Source: a virus. From it: DNA of 64,000 nucleotides. The stretch lies in the IMG/VR virus record IMGVR_UViG_3300012988_000001, positions 246,414-310,413 of that record; one strand, given 5' to 3'. Below, one piece after another: positions 70 to 61,932 of the stretch. The notes beneath the pieces are model-generated. The model made no database searches, was not told the origin of the DNA, and saw nothing but the letters and a program-made list of their open reading frames with translations. The position numbers and the translations under genes were made by a program. Position 1 is the first letter of the stretch. Every line of letters starts with the position of its first letter.

Positions 70-2784
70 ATGCCTAGTAAAAGTAAAGCACAAGCTAGGT
101 TCTTTGCAGCGGCAGCACACAACCCAGACTTTGCTAAGAAAGCTGGTGTTAGTACTAAAGCTGCTAAAGAATGGAACCAAGCAGACAAGAAAGCAGGAAC
201 TCTTAAAAAGGGTTCTAAGAAACCTGAACATGTGAAAGAAGAAGTTCTTGATGAAGAACTATTAGATGAAGCTAGTGGGGTTGGTAATTTCCCAGTACCG
301 CCAAGTTCTCTTAAGCTAATGCAAAAATATGCATCTTCAATTGTGTTGACATATGCTTATAAATCATTTCAACAGATGCAACAGAATACAGATGATGAAG
401 TAGATCAATTGGCTGCGAAAAAGGTTCTTCCGTTTCTAAAACGTTTCCAACAGAAATACGGTGCTCAAGTACTAAACGATAATAGTATGCGTAAGTATGT
501 GAACCAAAGTATTAGTATGCCAATCGACCATGCAGCTATTTTCCGGGAACTACCAAAATCACTACAGAATGACATGGTTAAAGTTCTAATTGAAAAGATG
601 CGTGTATTCGTAACATTCGACGCAAAATATTATAACAGCCGTGCTGGTGGTCATGCTAAGAAGATTAACAACACTACTAGTGAAATTGTTCTTGCTCTAC
701 GTCCTCAGTACTTCACATTTTCTTCAACATCCGGTACTGATGGCCTCGATGCAACAATGGAACGTATGGATTATTTCATGGGTTCTCTCGAACACGAAAT
801 GCAACACGCATTCCAAGAAATTGTCACTTCTCAAGTTAGTTCTCGTAAAGATAAGAATATTGAGATGAAGAAAGACTACGGGGATATGGGTGATGCTTAT
901 CACGCAAGTGGGGTTGAATTTGGTCCTCAGACAAAAGACATGATTAACGCTGGTATTTTGTGGTTAGATAACCAGAAAGACCGTGGAGAATTAAGTGGTA
1001 ATGCCAACAGTGATATTAAAGCTGCTATCCAACATGCATTCAAACGTTTAGAACATGGTCAAGGTAAAGTATATCAGGCTCTTAAGAATTACAAAGAAGA
1101 TGCTAATGCTAAAAAGCACATGACTCTAATCTTTAAAGGTCTTATGAAGCACTACCAAGAAATGGAAAATGAAGTTGATTCTGAGTTGGATTTAGATCCA
1201 AAAGAAGTTGACGGTGGTGAATCCCGTCTGTATCATTCCACTTCTAATGGTCCTGATGCAGATTACGAAAGTGATGATCCGATGGTTCAGATTTATCGTG
1301 CTATGGAATCCAAGAACGGTCTTAAACCATATCACGTAGAAGAAGAACGCGAACATGGTGCACCCCGTGATGATTTTGCTAACCCATATAACAAAATGGC
1401 ATCAATGGTGTATGCATTGCGTGATGGTGGATCAGTTCGTTTCATGAAGTACAGAGGTAATATTCGAGTTGACGCGTATCGTGATGGTAAAAGTCCTTCA
1501 CGTGAAGAAGGTGATTGGTTCGAAGAAGAAATAACACAAGAACTACTACCCCAAGCATTGGAAAATATGACTTCGTTCCGTTCATATAATACAATTGAGT
1601 ACTTCTTCGAAGATATTAAGCATAAAGCTAGCCAAATGGACCTAGAAGATATGGCAACTGCTTTCCCCAAATGGTTTGAAGCTGCTAAAGAGTTCTCTGG
1701 TGTTGACGACCCAAATAAGAAACTATCTTATGATTTTGATGAAGGTACTTTATTCTTTAGATTTGCTGGTGCTCGTGGTTCATGGTATATCCAAGATGCA
1801 CATGATGGTAAATGTGTACTAGAAGATAACGAAACTTATGAACGTAAGGGTTATATCAAATATGACGAAGTAGAAGATGTAATGACATTGTTATTCGCCA
1901 TCTATCAAATGGCTACCGACCGTCAAATCAATCGTGTAATGAAAAATATCAACGAATTGAATATTACTGTTGACTCGTTATCAAATACATGGGAATATGT
2001 ACAAGAATCATCTAAAGCACCAGTTGAAGAATCTTCAATGCGTGGTATGATGGATTTAGTACAAGATGCTGAAATTGCAGATGGTATAGATCAAGCAAAT
2101 AAAAGTACTGATGTTGCTAGAATGGCACAGAAGAAAAAAGATGATAGAATGAATTCATTAAATCAGCTAGGTGAAGAAGAAGAGTTTGATTTACAGGGTA
2201 AGCCTGTTAAACCCGGACAAAAATCAGCAGATGTACATGCTGGTACAAGTACTGAACGTGAGGTTAAACTAGACGAAATGCCAATGCGATTTGATTCATT
2301 CCAAGGCCAAAATGCTGATGAGTTCGTTGACAAAACAGCAGAAATGACAGGTAAAGCAAATCTAGTTCCATTCTCTGAACACGATACTTTCACTGTAATG
2401 CGTAACAAGAGTTACACTGGTTTTATCGCATTTGATAAACAAGGTAAACAAATTGCAGTTGTAAGTGGTCACCTTTCGGATGATGCAGTACTTGGTGTTA
2501 AGAACGTATTTGAAATTGCGGCGACGGCATCTAAATCAACAGTGAAAGGTGTTATGTATCAAATCTTCATGGATATGACTAAAGCTGGGATTTCAATACT
2601 AAGTGATAAATTACATACAGATAGTGCTATAAAATTCTGGACTCGTCTAATCGGTTCGAATGAAGTATATATCGTAGGTGGTGGTGAAGTTCTTGCAAAA
2701 GCTACACCAGAGAAAATCCACAAATACTGGAGCGATGATGAAAACAGCCCAAGTGCTGAACTTCAACTGCTTCTCGTGGGCTAA
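70..2784 (+). CDS. large hypothetical protein (904 aa) with basic K/A-rich N-terminus and an HEXXH motif (SLEHEMQHAF)
   Basis: Long uninterrupted ORF, RBS-like AAGGA upstream of ATG at 70. The HEMQH motif is visible in the translation. No family recognised. Confidence 0.5.
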   Translation: MPSKSKAQARFFAAAAHNPDFAKKAGVSTKAAKEWNQADKKAGTLKKGSKKPEHVKEEVLDEELLDEASGVGNFPVPPSSLKLMQKYASSIVLTYAYKSFQQMQQNTDDEVDQLAAKKVLPFLKRFQQKYGAQVLNDNSMRKYVNQSISMPIDHAAIFRELPKSLQNDMVKVLIEKMRVFVTFDAKYYNSRAGGHAKKINNTTSEIVLALRPQYFTFSSTSGTDGLDATMERMDYFMGSLEHEMQHAFQEIVTSQVSSRKDKNIEMKKDYGDMGDAYHASGVEFGPQTKDMINAGILWLDNQKDRGELSGNANSDIKAAIQHAFKRLEHGQGKVYQALKNYKEDANAKKHMTLIFKGLMKHYQEMENEVDSELDLDPKEVDGGESRLYHSTSNGPDADYESDDPMVQIYRAMESKNGLKPYHVEEEREHGAPRDDFANPYNKMASMVYALRDGGSVRFMKYRGNIRVDAYRDGKSPSREEGDWFEEEITQELLPQALENMTSFRSYNTIEYFFEDIKHKASQMDLEDMATAFPKWFEAAKEFSGVDDPNKKLSYDFDEGTLFFRFAGARGSWYIQDAHDGKCVLEDNETYERKGYIKYDEVEDVMTLLFAIYQMATDRQINRVMKNINELNITVDSLSNTWEYVQESSKAPVEESSMRGMMDLVQDAEIADGIDQANKSTDVARMAQKKKDDRMNSLNQLGEEEEFDLQGKPVKPGQKSADVHAGTSTEREVKLDEMPMRFDSFQGQNADEFVDKTAEMTGKANLVPFSEHDTFTVMRNKSYTGFIAFDKQGKQIAVVSGHLSDDAVLGVKNVFEIAATASKSTVKGVMYQIFMDMTKAGISILSDKLHTDSAIKFWTRLIGSNEVYIVGGGEVLAKATPEKIHKYWSDDENSPSAELQLLLVG

Positions 2785-2907: not shown

Positions 2908-4881
2908 ATGACCAAACAAAAGAAATCCTCATCCGTGCTTTCTGAACATGACGTTCAGCGACTAAACGACTATCAACATGCTCGCATCCGTACTGAAATG
3001 TACTTAGGTTCACGTTCTGTTCATGAACACCAAGTAGTTCTTTTCGGAGAAGAAGGTTACAATGTTCAGAATCTAGAATGGGTTCCAGCATTGATTACTG
3101 CATTCCGTGAGATCATTGATAACTCCCTTGATGAGTTTAAAAAAGCTGGAACGAAAGATCCAGTACTAAAGATTGATTACAACGAAGAAGATTTATCATT
3201 TAGTATTAGTGATAACGGTCGTGGTATTCCAATCGATTACGTACCAGAGTTTGATGTACACTTGTGTACTATGGTACTAACAGAGACTAAGACAGGTCGT
3301 AACTTTGACGATTCAAAACGCGAAGGTACTATCGGTCAGAACGGTCTAGGTGGTTCCATTACAATGTGCGTTAGTTCTAAAGCAGAACTAGAGATTCACC
3401 GTGCGGGTCGCCCGTACAAAACAGTAGCATCTAACGATGGCTATGATGGTATCTATAAGTTCACACAGAAGTTTAAAGAAGGCACAATCCTTTTCCCTGA
3501 ACTAGATATTCAAGAACCTAACATTCGTAAGGTTCAAGCGGATAAAACTGGAACTTCTATTAGCTTCACGCTAAGTCCTGAAGTATTCAAAAACCGCAAC
3601 CTACCAACTGCGTTAGTATTCAGTATTCTTAAAGAGATTGCTTCAGCTAACCCAGCTTACAAGATTGTCCTTAATGGCAAGAAAATTGCTGTTAAAAACA
3701 CCCCAGAGAAAACTCTCTTCGGTGCAAACAAAATGATGAGCCTAAACGTCAAAGACGAAAGCATTGGTTTTGATAGTACTTTCTATATTGTCCCAAATGC
3801 TGTCCAAGGTATGAACACCAACTTCCATATGCAAGGTATTGTAAACAATGCTCCAGCATTTGATGGTGGTACACACCTCGAAACGTTCAAGAAGTTCTTC
3901 TCCCTAGGCGTTAGTACTGCTCTTGAGAAAGAAGCAAAGAAACGCAAGATGACACCTAACCGTGCTGATATCGAAGAAGGGCTAATGATTTATAATGTGA
4001 CTACAATGAACGCACCATCGTTCAACTCACAGATTAAATCTAAGCTAACTAACGAAAATGTTATTGCTCCAGTGAAAAAAGCGATGACTCCTGAATTCTT
4101 CGATGAACTTGTTAAAAAGAACAAAGAATGGGTTGATGAGATTTTCACTCGTACTTCAGAGCGTACCAATAAGAAAGATGCTGATGAAGATCGCCGTCTA
4201 GCTAAGAAGTTGCTAAAATCTAAAGTTGCCAAACTACTTGATGCAACTGGTACAAACCGTGAAGAATGTATTCTACTAATTGCAGAAGGTGATTCCGCTG
4301 TTAGTAACATGTCTGCTGCTCGTGATTCCAAGAAGCATGGTATTCTACCATTGCGTGGTAAAATCATGAACGTAAACGGAACGGAGAAAACTAAAGCCCT
4401 AATGGATAGTGATTCCCTAAAGGATATCATGGCATCTATCAACCTAATCCCCGGTCAGAAAGCAGTACGTTCAGAATTGAACTACGGTAAGCTATATATC
4501 TGTGCCGATGAAGATGAGGATGGTAAAAACATTGGTGCGTTAGTAGTTAACTTCCTATTCAAATTCTGGCCTGAACTATTTGAAGACCCAGAAAACCCAT
4601 TTGTATATGTTTTCAAAACACCATTTATTATCCTTGAGAAAGGAAAAGAAAGTCGTTACTATTACGGTCACAATGTGGACGAATATAACCCAGAAGAATG
4701 GAAAGGTTGGAAAGCAACTCGTGCTAAAGGATTGGGTACTCTAGAAAAGAGTAACTTCCGTGATGCATTAACAAACGGCGTAGCAGTCGCTATTATCGAT
4801 GATGGTTCACTAGGGGCAACTCTAGACCTAATCTTTAATAAAGACCGTGCAGACGACCGTAAAGAGTGGATGGAAGAATAA
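2908..4881 (+). CDS. DNA topoisomerase II large subunit (T4 gp39-like, GyrB/ParE-type ATPase plus Toprim, unsplit)
   Basis: 657 aa. The N-terminus MTKQKK...DYQHARIRTEMYLGS matches the T4 gp39 start. GHKL ATPase and Toprim (EGDSA) motifs are present. Confidence 0.85.
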   Translation: MTKQKKSSSVLSEHDVQRLNDYQHARIRTEMYLGSRSVHEHQVVLFGEEGYNVQNLEWVPALITAFREIIDNSLDEFKKAGTKDPVLKIDYNEEDLSFSISDNGRGIPIDYVPEFDVHLCTMVLTETKTGRNFDDSKREGTIGQNGLGGSITMCVSSKAELEIHRAGRPYKTVASNDGYDGIYKFTQKFKEGTILFPELDIQEPNIRKVQADKTGTSISFTLSPEVFKNRNLPTALVFSILKEIASANPAYKIVLNGKKIAVKNTPEKTLFGANKMMSLNVKDESIGFDSTFYIVPNAVQGMNTNFHMQGIVNNAPAFDGGTHLETFKKFFSLGVSTALEKEAKKRKMTPNRADIEEGLMIYNVTTMNAPSFNSQIKSKLTNENVIAPVKKAMTPEFFDELVKKNKEWVDEIFTRTSERTNKKDADEDRRLAKKLLKSKVAKLLDATGTNREECILLIAEGDSAVSNMSAARDSKKHGILPLRGKIMNVNGTEKTKALMDSDSLKDIMASINLIPGQKAVRSELNYGKLYICADEDEDGKNIGALVVNFLFKFWPELFEDPENPFVYVFKTPFIILEKGKESRYYYGHNVDEYNPEEWKGWKATRAKGLGTLEKSNFRDALTNGVAVAIIDDGSLGATLDLIFNKDRADDRKEWMEE

Positions 4882-27428: not shown

Positions 27429-27518
<90 letters not shown>

Positions 27519-44814: not shown

Positions 44815-44906
44815 TTGCCGGTAGGCTAGAGTCCGATGCCACCCACCTCATAAGTGGATACAGTTAACCAGACACACCGAGGGTTAGAATCCCTCCCGGC
44901 GAACCA
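44815..44906 (+). tRNA. tRNA with extended variable region. Anticodon loop CUCAUAA (CAT: Met or Ile2?)
   Basis: Acceptor TTGCCGG/CCGGCGA, T-arm gagggttagaatccctc, CCA. The long variable region pairs poorly, so the isotype is uncertain. Confidence 0.45.
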
Positions 44907-55533: not shown

Positions 55534-55620
55534 ATTTACTGTTAGCTCAGATGGTAGAGCGGTTGTACTGGTGAGACTCCAGACAAAAGGGACACTGGTT
55601 CGATGCCAGTACAGTAAACC
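55534..55620 (+). tRNA. atypical tRNA-like gene. It has acceptor, D-arm, T-arm and CCA, but an 8 to 10 nt expanded anticodon or variable region and no clean anticodon loop
   Basis: Acceptor TTACTGT/ACAGTAA, D-arm tagctcagatggtagagc, T-arm actggttcgatgccagt, CCA. The middle folds as gtactgg-tgagact-ccagac. Confidence 0.3.
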
Positions 55621-55625
55621 ACAAT

Positions 55626-55701
55626 GCGTGATGATAGTTCAGTGTCAGAATATTTCCCTTTAGGATTCGGCAACGGTTAGATTCCGTTGATTCACGCTCC
55701 A
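55626..55701 (+). other. degenerate tRNA-like element (T-arm aacggttagattccgtt, imperfect acceptor, ends CCA)
   Basis: Read directly. D-arm and anticodon arm pairing are poor. Confidence 0.2.
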
Positions 55702-55991: not shown

Positions 55992-56117
55992 TGCGTGACG
56001 TTACGTAGAGCACCGAACAGATATCCTAAGTCAGTCTAGAAATACTTAGGAAGGAGTTAGTGTTATCTAGGGTATCATACGAGGTTGATCGCTCGTTGGT
56101 GTGGTTCGAGTCCACGG
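55992..56117 (+). other. tRNA-like element with a canonical T-arm (tgtggttcgagtccacg), a 3' acceptor strand plus CCA, and a matching 5' strand 126 nt upstream. Too long for a standard tRNA
   Basis: gcgtgac ... gttacgt-a-cca pairing found by eye. Confidence 0.2.
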
Positions 56118-56300
56118 TTACGTACCACTTAAATCATTTACCTTTAGACTGTAGTTCGAAATGCAGAATATTGGGGTACATAACATCGCTTAAGGACTTC
56201 GTTTAGCGGCGAAGGGGATACGTGCAAGGGTTATGAAGAAAATACCGGGAACGACTGGCTATGCCTTAGATGATTTATTTTTAATTAAAGGAGTACTGAA

Positions 56301-58241: not shown

Positions 58242-58483
58242 TGAGTAATAAGTACTTTGTACGTTATAGTTACAATGTAACCAACAAGGTTCCACGTGGT
58301 GATGGTCTTGGTTGGGGTTATGAAACTGAACAAGTGACCGATTCTTGTGTATGTGAAATCGATCCAGAGCATATTGATATATCTGAAGTACGTCATACTG
58401 TACTTCGTTATGAACTCAATTATTTGGGTGAACGTAAACCAGATGCATATGATATTGATATTTTAGTACTGAATAAACTATGA
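58241..58483 (+). CDS. hypothetical protein
   Basis: ORF. Confidence 0.4.
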   Translation: MSNKYFVRYSYNVTNKVPRGDGLGWGYETEQVTDSCVCEIDPEHIDISEVRHTVLRYELNYLGERKPDAYDIDILVLNKL

Positions 58484-58653
58484 TTAACTATATCTTTCGT
58501 GTAAGGGGTAAAGGTATTGTTCCCGGATTGACAGTTGTTCGTGCGTACACTGCAACTGATGCTCGTGAAATGCTACTAGCTGAATTCAGCAAGCCCGAAG
58601 ACGTTACGATCACTTTGGTTGAATGTAGTCAAGAATTATCGTTTTTAAACTAG
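58483..58653 (+). CDS. small hypothetical protein (56 aa)
   Basis: ATGA overlap. Under 60 aa, so not in the ORF track. Confidence 0.3.
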   Translation: MNYIFRVRGKGIVPGLTVVRAYTATDAREMLLAEFSKPEDVTITLVECSQELSFLN

Positions 58654-58754
58654 GACATATTGCGTGATCTGGTTTTATCGTGTAGAATGAGGCTAAAATC
58701 ATTTGTAAATGCGTTAGAAGCGGAGTCGGGGTTGAATTCCCCGAATGTCCACCA
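58653..58754 (+). other. long (102 nt) tRNA-like element. It has acceptor GGACATA/AATGTCC, T-arm cggggttgaattccccg, CCA. An internal stem-loop aatga-ggctaaa-tcatt would present CUA
   Basis: Read directly. Too long for a standard tRNA and the D-arm is unclear. Confidence 0.3.
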
Positions 58755-58756
58755 CC

Positions 58757-58844
58757 GGGAGAGTGATGGAAAGGCATACATAGGCATCTCCAGTGTCTTA
58801 GTCTTGATGACAATGCAAGGTTCGAGTCCTTGTCTCTCCCACCA
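58757..58844 (+). other. tRNA-like element (acceptor GGGAGAG/CTCTCCC, T-arm caaggttcgagtccttg plus 1 nt, CCA)
   Basis: Read directly. The anticodon arm was not resolved. Confidence 0.3.
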
Positions 58845-58992
58845 AACAATAATACCTATCATCTAATATCAGTACTGGTGGCGTGTCGTCGAGGACGATG
58901 GACAGTACTGACAGGATACCTCGTTCGCCAGCAGTGGGTTCGGGGGATGTACGTAAAGTCGTGCTGGGTATGCCAAATTATTTAAAAAACTT

Positions 58993-59021
58993 GGGACAAA
59001 ACATGAATTTTGTCCTATAAT
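58993..59021 (+). promoter_or_regulatory. class B promoter with GGACAAAAC/GTTTTGTCC palindrome (near-duplicate of 30335)
   Basis: ttgggacaaaacatgaattttgtcctataat. Confidence 0.65.
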
Positions 59022-60764: not shown

Positions 60765-61115
60765 ATGTTCAGTACACATCTTAAAGTTGAACTAATAAAC
60801 AACAAAGGTAAGAAATGGAAAGTACTAGAGGACTTGACATACCATAGCGATTACGGTATGATCACTGTGCCAAAAGACTTCCAGACTGACTTTGCTAGCG
60901 TCCCTCGTATCCCTGTGGTTTTCGAACTTGTAGGTGACAGAGGCCACGCAGCAGCAACCGTACACGATTGGTTATACCAACATGGTGACCTATCGAGGAA
61001 GCAAGCCGATTTAGTACTTCGTCAAGCATTACGCGATACGAATGTAGGAAAGGCTAGATCGTATGTAATGTACTATGGAGTACGTGCATTCGGATGGTTG
61101 TTCTTCAAAAAATAA
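60765..61115 (+). CDS. DUF1353-like protein
   Basis: ITVPKDFQTDFASVPR...AATVHDWLY pattern typical of DUF1353. Confidence 0.4.
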   Translation: MFSTHLKVELINNKGKKWKVLEDLTYHSDYGMITVPKDFQTDFASVPRIPVVFELVGDRGHAAATVHDWLYQHGDLSRKQADLVLRQALRDTNVGKARSYVMYYGVRAFGWLFFKK

Positions 61116-61296: not shown

Positions 61297-61372
61297 GCGG
61301 TAGTAGCTCAGATGGTAGAGCGGGAGTTTTCCAAACTTCAGGTCTTCGGTTCGAAACCGAATTATCGCTCCA
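61297..61372 (+). tRNA. tRNA-Gly (anticodon TCC)
   Basis: Acceptor GCGGTAG/TTATCGC (with G-U pairs), D-arm tagctcagatggtagagc, anticodon stem-loop ggagt-tttccaa-acttc, T-arm ttcggttcgaaaccgaa, CCA. Confidence 0.75.
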
Positions 61373-61383
61373 CGAGGTAAAAT

Positions 61384-61932
61384 ATGTATAATAAGAAGAT
61401 AGAAATATCTGGCATTAACAATGGTTACCAATATTTTATTGATTATGAACATCCATTAGCAACCGGAAATTCAGGAAGGGTGTATTTACACCGTCACATC
61501 GCATCAATTAAAATTAGTCGATGGGTTACTGGTAATGAACATGTTCACCATATTGATGAAAACAAACTTAATAATGATGAAGTTAATTTGGAAGTACTAT
61601 CAGATCTTGAACATCGTCGTTTACATTGGAAAGAAAGAAATAATTTGCCAGATGATTACGAATGGTTTGATTCTGAAATTATTCCATGTAATTGGTGCTC
61701 AGAATTATTTCAAACGAAATATAAAGATCACATGTATTGTTCTATTAGTTGCGGATCATTAGCACAACCACAAAAATTCCCAATTGATAAAGATATATTA
61801 TCCGAATTGATTTGGAAAATGCCAGCCACTGAGATAGCCAAAATATATGGTTGCTCTGATAAAACCATCGGTAAAAAATGTAACCGATATAATATAACCA
61901 AACCACCACGCGGTTATTGGTTGCGTAAATAA
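61384..61932 (+). CDS. HNH homing endonuclease
   Basis: ...NEHVHHIDENKLNNDEVNLEVLSDLEHRRLH HNH motif. C-terminal Cys pairs. Confidence 0.7.
   Translation: MYNKKIEISGINNGYQYFIDYEHPLATGNSGRVYLHRHIASIKISRWVTGNEHVHHIDENKLNNDEVNLEVLSDLEHRRLHWKERNNLPDDYEWFDSEIIPCNWCSELFQTKYKDHMYCSISCGSLAQPQKFPIDKDILSELIWKMPATEIAKIYGCSDKTIGKKCNRYNITKPPRGYWLRK

Follow-up and report, generated by a model that had tools for sequence, protein, structure and literature searches.

A tandem of three tRNA-like RNAs, probably without a decoding role, in the tRNA region of a RaK2-like jumbo phage

Since the 1970s, phage tRNA clusters have been recognised as sources of stable tRNA-like RNAs, namely RNA C and RNA D of T4. Both T4 species are small RNAs transcribed from the tRNA region, with roles that are still unknown (PMC3014915). 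In Bacillus cereus, the tRNA-derived RNA tRNA-Other is described as non-translational, and its deletion has a phenotype (PMC3399842). Here we describe a locus encoding three consecutive tRNA-like RNAs in a 64,000-nt stretch of viral DNA (positions 246,414 to 310,413 of the IMG/VR record IMGVR_UViG_3300012988_000001), hereafter referred to as the window. The three RNAs, all encoded on the plus strand, were designated RNA1 (102 nt, 58653..58754), RNA2 (88 nt, 58757..58844) and RNA3 (124 nt, 58852..58975), and none of them reaches an Rfam threshold. A first-pass annotation of the window had proposed RNA1 and RNA2 as two adjacent non-standard tRNA-like genes, a proposal that our analysis bears out through the acceptor stem, T arm and ACCA end found in each; RNA3, a third cloverleaf RNA ending in NCCA, had been overlooked. 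We consider it probable that the locus constitutes an array of three non-decoding tRNA mimics that are cut from an early transcript by tRNA-processing enzymes.

The T4 rnaC and rnaD genes, which encode the species 1 and 2 stable RNAs of ~120-140 nt, are likewise arranged in tandem at the end of the phage tRNA cluster, and rnaC contains a T arm (CCGGG-UUCGAAU-CCCGG). A corresponding position was observed for the window RNAs, which lie near tRNA genes, and for the RNA3 homologues of Erwinia phage pEa_SNUABM_47 (hereafter pEa47) and Serratia phage BF, which directly follow the last tRNA-Ala gene of their clusters. Unlike RNA1, RNA2 and RNA3, however, rnaC and rnaD lack a gene-encoded CCA, and the minihelix-plus-rod layout of RNA1 (see below) was not seen in the T4 RNAs. 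Furthermore, our covariance models R1 (RNA1) and R2 (RNA3) gave no match in the T4 locus (L012), and no homology to rnaC or rnaD was detectable. By this analogy, the array resembles T4 RNA C and RNA D in kind and in position, not by homology. The tRNA-Other gene of B. cereus differs in being chromosomal, in flanking a genomic island and in retaining a cloverleaf and an anticodon, and it bears no sequence relation to the phage RNAs. Models of Y-RNA-like (YrlA) RNAs gave no Rfam match at E values up to 10, and no TROVE domain was found in 10 large open reading frames (ORFs) among the 11 largest of the window.

RNA1 exhibits a predicted structure that consists, in order, of a 6-bp acceptor stem (GGACAU/AUGUCC), nine unpaired nucleotides, a rod, a single nucleotide, a T arm with a 6-bp stem (UCGGGG/CCCCGA) and the ACCA end, and that contains no anticodon. 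The 9-nt linker (AUUGCGUGA, 58659..58667), which replaces the D arm, was unpaired in all predicted folds and invariant in the three distinct RNA1 sequences. The 57-nt rod (58668..58724) has a basal stem (UCUG/CGGA) that is followed by irregular helices and topped by an apical hairpin (GAAUGA-GGCUAAAA-UCAUUU), and the T arm (UCGGGG-UUGAAUU-CCCCGA) spans positions 58726..58744. In the predicted fold, the T arm stacks directly on the acceptor stem, forming a continuous tRNA-like helix of 12 bp. The same minimum-energy architecture was obtained for each of the three distinct sequences (z = -3.0, -3.1 and -3.7), and pairing within the rod was kept with different letters in the window (UUUUA.CGUGU/AUGCG.UAGAA) and in pEa47 (CUUCCU.UCC/GGA.AGGAAG). 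For the window version of RNA1, a cloverleaf with a D arm and a variable-arm hairpin is also possible; the pEa47 sequence is unable to form this hairpin but keeps the rod by compensation, and the minihelix-plus-rod model was therefore preferred.

The Rfam tRNA model (RF00005) scored RNA1 at only 13.5 bits (E = 8.5; threshold 29), and ARAGORN left it uncalled in every variant (window, relatives and pEa47). The view that neither RNA1 nor RNA2 is a standard tRNA was thus upheld, with scores for the Rfam tRNA and tRNA-Sec models below their thresholds and no sound ARAGORN call for either element. As to the T arms, described in the first-pass annotation as canonical, T stems are indeed present in both RNAs, but the RNA1 T-loop (UUGAAUU) has a G at the C56 position and is not fully canonical; the linker of RNA1 may contact this loop. 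A scan of both window strands for a T arm combined with an acceptor stem and NCCA returned the tRNAs, RNA1, RNA2, three odd elements and one weak minus-strand match, and the scarcity of other sites indicates that the tRNA-like features of RNA1 and RNA2 did not arise by chance. Other structural readings were also considered. C/D-box or kink-turn motifs (GUGAUG and UGAUGA in RNA2; GUGAUC/GAA in RNA1) were associated with weak snoRNA matches (E = 0.1 to 8) that lacked a box D partner, and the strand geometry, by inspection, misfits a standard kink-turn; this reading was therefore set aside. Sites in the window complementary to the RNA1 linker, as candidate antisense targets, were not enriched (24 sites vs 16 +/- 4 expected).

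Homologues of RNA1 were found only in three relatives and in pEa47. The relatives are L007 (Logan ERR14654858), a close but distinct strain, and L009, identical to the window, both retrieved by exact-protein look-up, together with L013 (OBJT01002281.1), which came from a metagenome pattern scan; an IMG/VR search via a neighbouring protein returned no relatives. In pEa47, the RNA1 homologue (L001:2995-3097) is unannotated and lies between two tRNA-Met genes. This phage was the sole match when both RNA1 versions were compared by BLAST with 50,697 phage records. A minus-strand coding sequence (CDS) occupies the RNA1 position in Serratia phage BF. Two pattern scans of IMG/VR yielded no RNA1 homologue, and a pattern search of 185,579 prokaryotic genomes gave 33 matches with no full-length homologue among them; model R1, applied to these 33, produced one partial T-arm match (L028, 21.8 bits, E = 0.0077) that overlaps the searched pattern.

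All 102 nucleotides of RNA1 are identical in L007, in which the upstream gene is 78.5% identical and RNA2 84%, and ~70% identity is retained in pEa47, a genome otherwise too diverged for blastn. In the three-sequence alignment, 97.6% of the cells were paired and 9 of 28 pairs were changed on both sides, including three double-changed pairs each in the acceptor stem and in the T stem. None of 500 shuffled alignments reached these values, and slid registers all fell far short of them. The T stem, for instance, reads UCUAGG/CCUAGA in L013 and UUAAGG/CCUUAA in pEa47, with compensatory changes in three pairs. In the acceptor stem, G1-C72, G2-C71, A3-U70 and the discriminator A73 are invariant and pairs 4 to 6 covary. 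The linker, the rod motif GUAG, the block GAAGCGGA and the entire T-loop, including the G at the C56 position, are also invariant. The least conserved part is the apical loop: the window has GGCUAAAA here, pEa47 has GGAUAAAA and L013 has the 5-nt GCAUA.

The layout of RNA1 matches that of the tRNA-like domain of transfer-messenger RNA (tmRNA), which also combines an acceptor/T helix ending in ACCA with a single strand in place of the D arm and a long helix in place of the anticodon arm. The G3-U70 pair is the alanine identity pair; RNA1 differs from tmRNA in carrying an invariant A3-U70 pair instead of G3-U70, and in lacking an mRNA-like part and a tag frame. In agreement, the tmRNA mode of ARAGORN called no tmRNA in the window, the relatives or pEa47, and no Rfam tmRNA match was obtained at E values up to 10. 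The closest affinities of RNA1 are instead with the tRNA-Ser genes of the phage itself (27429-27518 and 52632-52723), with which it has in common the T arm, the long arm's 3' strand one nucleotide before the T stem, a UGGUU motif and the GGA...UCC acceptor end. Genes for tRNA-Ser were the best cross-matches of model R1, and pairwise similarity to RNA1 was highest for the phage's own tRNA-Ser (z = 5.5). In a joint alignment, moreover, the 5' part of RNA1 (UUG.GUGA..UGGUU) matched the tRNA-Ser D region, and the 3' basal block GAAGCGGA, which a single nucleotide separates from the T stem, matched the 3' strand of the Ser long variable arm. On the basis of these cross-matches, the similarity score and the joint alignment, RNA1 derives from a type-II tRNA, most likely tRNA-Ser. 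It differs from a bacterial type-II tRNA-Ser in having neither a D arm nor an anticodon arm and loop, in the G56 and the discriminator A, and in its score of 13.5 bits. The most RNA1-like tRNA gene, the tRNA-Ser at 27429-27518, was called with the anticodon ACU, whose A34 is unusual for bacterial-type tRNAs.

RNA2 exhibits the features of a degenerate type-II tRNA: its acceptor stem has 7 bp (GGGAGAG/CUCUCCC), its T arm has a 6-bp stem (GCAAGG-UUCGAGU-CCUUGU), and it ends in ACCA. It is 74/88 identical to its counterpart in L007 (14 differences) and 73/88 to that in L013 (15 differences). The T stem and the stem formed by positions 26-30 and 38-42 are 100% paired across the variants, compensatory A-U to G-C changes occur once in the T stem and once in the acceptor stem (the latter in L013), and G59.U77 becomes G-C. 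The putative D and variable stems, in contrast, lose pairs (78% paired), and pair 1:72 changes from G-C in the window to AxG in L007 and GxG in L013. The loop reads UCUCCAG or UCUUCAG, its UCC triplet (Gly) giving way to UUC (Glu) while the body, with C33, stays otherwise the same. ARAGORN called RNA2 as 'Gly(tcc)' in the window only, by means of a shifted acceptor stem with mismatches, and made no call in L007 or L013; RF00005 gave no match at E values up to 10. The best Rfam score was obtained with tRNA-Sec (RF01852; 21.2 bits, threshold 47), an identity that was rejected owing to the score below threshold, the absence of UCA from the 7-nt loop and an acceptor-T helix of 7+6 = 13 bp in the window whose 1:72 pair is mismatched in L007 and L013. 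The closest tRNA in the window is tRNA-Tyr (z = 4.6). From these sequence comparisons, RNA2 looks like a decaying type-II tRNA that keeps what processing needs.

RNA3, in turn, was found within the 135 bases that follow RNA2, which gave the only strong BLAST matches of the region (82-86% identity, ten records, of the K64-1/RaK2/Muenster type plus EJP2). RNAalifold applied to five variants predicted a four-way junction of cloverleaf topology. It is closed by a 7-bp stem (AUACCUA/UGGGUAU) and has three arms: the first is long and variable at its tip, the second (CCUCG/CGGGG) contains an inner CCA/UGG, and the third (GUACG-UAAAGU-CGUGC) adjoins the closing stem on its 3' strand. A discriminator (G or A; G in the window) and CCA come after the closing stem in all variants. 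Model R2 matched Klebsiella phages K64-1 (L002:2505-2638) and RaK2 (L014:604-737) and Escherichia phage EJP2 (L004:20005-20132), and it also matched pEa47 (L001:3327-3457) and Serratia phage BF (L005:28596-28726), both at 68 bits. In the RNA3 alignment, which took in the pEa47 and BF sequences and was fitted to the model, 98.1% of the cells were paired and 16 of 36 pairs were double-changed, values reached by none of 500 shuffles. RNA3 had no match in Rfam, its homologues in GenBank records are either unannotated or labelled 'hypothetical protein', and an IMG/VR scan for further variants returned only RaK2 itself. Just after RNA3 in K64-1, the segment L002:2655-2735 contains a tRNA-like D arm (AGCUCAAAUAGGUAGAGC) and T arm (GUGAGUUCAAUUCUCAC) and is uncalled by ARAGORN; it may be another degenerate tRNA-like gene. 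In L013, the RNA3 slot holds a different structured sequence that ends in a U-run without CCA.

The three RNAs come after a run of small plus-strand genes and are separated from each other by only 2 nt (RNA1-RNA2) and 7 nt (RNA2-RNA3). No terminator-like site was found on the plus strand from the small-gene array to RNA3. A promoter-like site for the next transcription unit (GGGACA, 17 nt, TATAAT) is located at 58993..59021 on the plus strand, in agreement with the downstream promoter noted in the first-pass annotation. Since no terminator precedes the RNAs and a promoter follows them, we infer that they are co-transcribed with the upstream genes. The G of the TAG stop codon of the upstream small ORF (58651..58653, plus strand) is nucleotide 1 of RNA1, and the same overlap occurs in L007 (~3625-3627) and in L013 (~330-332, minus strand) despite a different preceding gene. 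An RNase P cut at RNA1 would therefore leave the upstream mRNA ending in UA, with an incomplete stop codon. RNase P recognises a stack of acceptor and T stems plus RCCA, and from these recognition features excision of the RNAs by tRNA-processing enzymes would be expected.

A decoding function for these RNAs, a possibility raised for RNA1 in the first-pass annotation, finds little room in the data. The hairpin that had been read with a 7-nt loop presenting CUA at the anticodon positions is in fact aatga-GGCTAAAA-tcatt, with an 8-nt loop at 58691-58698. Because of this loop length, CUA cannot occupy positions 34-36 of a normal anticodon loop, and a G would stand at position 33. The C of the triplet is replaced by A in pEa47, giving AUA, and in L013 the entire apical loop is swapped for five nucleotides while the rest of the RNA is conserved; since such a replacement is tolerated, the apical loop is not used as an anticodon loop. 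Both RNA1 and RNA2 have the acceptor stem, T arm and NCCA of a canonical tRNA, with covariation, but neither has an anticodon loop of 7 nt that carries both U33 and a conserved anticodon. Nor did the structure predictors (ARAGORN, including its tmRNA mode, and Rfam) assign a stable isotype. The coding density of the window gave no indication of TAG recoding, ORF coverage being 88.2% with the standard code and 89.9% with TAG as sense, a gain equalled with TAA as sense. TAG terminates 9 of 113 window ORFs, seven of which have another stop codon within 16 codons. In-frame TAG usage, whose lack the first-pass annotation had counted toward a refutation, was not seen in the window. Amber suppression and TAG recoding were rejected on these grounds, and, in the absence of any sign of recoding in the window, the phage genome would need no amber suppressor. 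That RNA1 is a UAG-reading suppressor tRNA, as its C-U-A in the window might suggest, or RNA2 a working tRNA-Gly(UCC), as labelled by ARAGORN, is accordingly very improbable: the former lacks a D arm, the latter is recognised in neither L007 nor L013, and a canonical tRNA-Gly(UCC) is already encoded at 61297-61372. We give even less credence to the idea that the region encodes small proteins. The ORFs at 58660-58866 (plus strand), 58610-58849 and 58650-58862 (both minus strand), which the first-pass annotation had already taken as spurious, are open in the window, and a 'hypothetical protein' is annotated over the RNA3 homologue in some records; all three frames, however, contain stop codons in L007 and L013, and the substitutions are compensatory in RNA helices and show no codon periodicity.

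Two further explanations concede the RNA nature of the elements but deny the released molecules a role, and we regard either as unlikely for the locus as a whole. Duplicated tRNA-Ser- and tRNA-Tyr-type genes could be drifting as pseudogenes, as might be expected from the other degenerate tRNA-like genes in the cluster and the 'tRNA-Pseudo' annotations of related phages. For RNA2 this is likely, given that its substitutions relative to L007 (16%) approach those of the neighbouring coding DNA (21%) and that its D and variable stems, pair 1:72 and triplet are not maintained, although three of its stems remain fully or nearly fully paired. For RNA1 and RNA3 it is unlikely. RNA1 is unchanged in L007 next to a much more divergent gene, and it is the only part of a 211-nt query that was matched in a distant genus, with compensatory changes; RNA3 is kept across several genera with its 16 covarying pairs. 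Derivation from tRNAs (Ser for RNA1, Tyr for RNA2) is thus supported, and unconstrained evolution is rejected for RNA1 and plausible for RNA2. Alternatively, the elements could act solely as processing punctuation, that is, as RNase P sites that define mRNA ends. The overlap of the upstream TAG with G1 of RNA1 in the window, L007 and L013, the short spacing of the elements, the lack of an upstream terminator and the conservation in RNA2 of mainly the acceptor and T parts would all agree with such a function. A cleavage signal, however, requires neither an invariant linker, a T-loop with an unusual G and a covarying 57-nt rod, nor the four-helix core of RNA3, and one signal would suffice where three are present.

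Several considerations nevertheless weigh against a functional array of tRNA mimics. The RNA1 statistics are thin, only three distinct sequences being known, and the rod alignment between the window and pEa47 involves a 1-nt register shift, the evidence for the middle of the rod being the per-sequence folds and not alignment columns. The RNA2 statistics are weak, with three close sequences and 32 to 51 of 500 shuffles reaching the observed values. RNA1 also appears dispensable for this kind of phage, judging from its sporadic occurrence, its presence in one of 50,697 records and the CDS that takes its place in BF. Finally, the processing, the stability and the binding partner of the RNAs are inferred from sequence.

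With these reservations, the reading as non-decoding tRNA mimics leads us to propose the following scheme. The locus, part of the tRNA region of a RaK2-like jumbo phage of ~366 kb, would be a tandem of three tRNA-shaped RNAs with which an early transcript ends. Each RNA would present a target for processing enzymes, consisting of an acceptor stem stacked on the adjacent arm and an encoded NCCA. Most likely, host RNase P cuts the 5' end and the 3' end is trimmed to CCA, leading to the accumulation of stable RNAs. RNA1 would represent a tRNA-Ser-type gene whose D and anticodon arms were replaced by the linker and by a rod at the position of the Ser variable arm and, having no anticodon, it could decode neither UAG nor another codon. 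The strict conservation of RNA1 suggests a role that depends on its sequence: it may imitate the upper half of a tRNA and be bound by a protein that recognises tRNA without the anticodon, for which seryl-tRNA synthetase (SerRS), EF-Tu, the CCA-adding enzyme or a host toxin directed against the acceptor end are candidates. An invariant Ser-type acceptor, T-loop and linker, together with a long arm kept at the variable-arm position with a dispensable tip, form the pattern to be expected if a protein read RNA1 in a SerRS-like, anticodon-free manner. RNA2 would be a fast-evolving remnant of a type-II (Tyr-like) tRNA with little kept beyond processing needs, and RNA3 a separate structured family, widely conserved in these phages.

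A more specific and quite improbable extension of this scheme is that RNA1, and perhaps RNA3, serves as an RNA counter-defence, a tRNA-Ser mimic that soaks up, or is preferentially modified by, antiphage effectors attacking the acceptor end whatever the anticodon, or else that it is serylated by SerRS for a non-ribosomal use. Effectors countered by an RNA1 decoy could be, for example, nucleotidyltransferases of the MenT/AbiEii type or CCA-pyrophosphorylating toxins of the CapRel/FaRel type. The toxin MenT3 selects tRNA-Ser by the CCA end and by the long variable arm's length and orientation (PMC11541572), and toxins that pyrophosphorylate CCA ends have been implicated in antiphage immunity (PMC11559606). 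RNA1 is scattered over two unrelated lineages of jumbo phages, as would suit an accessory gene in such an arms race.

The sequence of the window recurs unchanged within a metagenome contig of 366,036 bp (ENA ERZ27311759 k141_2757135). Its nucleotide-level matches to other phages are short stretches only, with ~80% identity, and the partly matching phages include Salmonella phage Munch, Klebsiella phages K64-1 and RaK2, Escherichia phage EJP2 and the Serratia/Erwinia Eneladusvirus phages. The window phage was therefore taken to represent a new RaK2-like jumbo phage lineage. Its tRNA region is long, with 14 genes called by ARAGORN and 11 tRNAs above the Rfam threshold spread over 27-62 kb of the window, and the CCA is gene-encoded in every one of its tRNA genes. 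Changes in gene content were noted on either side of the RNAs. The 57-aa ORF located directly 5' of RNA1 (58480-58653) is absent from L007 and L013, in which RNA1 adjoins an 80-aa gene, and L007 carries a ~265-nt insertion with an 84-aa ORF after RNA3. On this sequence comparison, the flanks of the array are hot spots of gene gain and loss. Genes for a DUF1353 protein and for a small Acb2/Tad1-hairpin-domain protein lie further downstream (60765-61115; ~63.3-63.5 kb = L006:8545-8769), this domain having the fold of anti-CBASS and anti-Thoeris sponges, as does an HNH endonuclease gene (61384-61932) that is missing from L007. Counter-defence and mobile genes are therefore present downstream of the RNAs.

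Additional oversized or irregular tRNA-like elements were detected in the window and in related phages. One window element, 135 nt long (55993-56127), combines an acceptor stem of 7 bp (GCGUGAC/GUUACGU) with a T arm (UGUGG-UUCGAGU-CCACG) and an ACCA end. It is uncalled by ARAGORN and Rfam, is 99% conserved in L007 and 78% in L013, and has a similarly sized equivalent in Salmonella phage Munch (L003:29655-29785). In the tRNA-like gene at 55536-55621, the 7-nt anticodon loop is replaced by a 16-nt insert (ARAGORN '???', with the 4-base anticodon ctgg; 40 bits in Rfam), and a degenerate tRNA at 55628-55696 scores 26.7 bits, below the threshold; both genes are conserved in L007 and L013. A 92-nt 'tRNA-Met' at 44815-44906, called by ARAGORN only, has a T-loop UUAGAAU and a long extra region and is not among the above-threshold Rfam matches. 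Elements of 87-125 nt with an acceptor stem plus a T arm were also found in Serratia phage BF (L005:4091-4209 and L005:5740-5864) and in Munch (L003:25233-25321), one of them annotated as 'tRNA-Pseudo' and the others unannotated. Oversized tRNA-like genes thus seem to recur in this phage group.

The locus adds two well-supported structured RNA families absent from Rfam, RNA1 and RNA3, together with one degenerate tRNA remnant, RNA2. It also removes a false lead, that of amber suppression or a change of genetic code, and flags spurious ORF annotations. RNA3 is common to jumbo phages of the RaK2, K64-1, EJP2 and BF types, some of which have been isolated and can be grown, and RNA1 is a tRNA-like RNA in which the anticodon has visibly been lost while strong selection has been retained. 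As many host defences have been found to target tRNAs, these RNAs provide a concrete, testable case for roles of tRNA mimics in phages.

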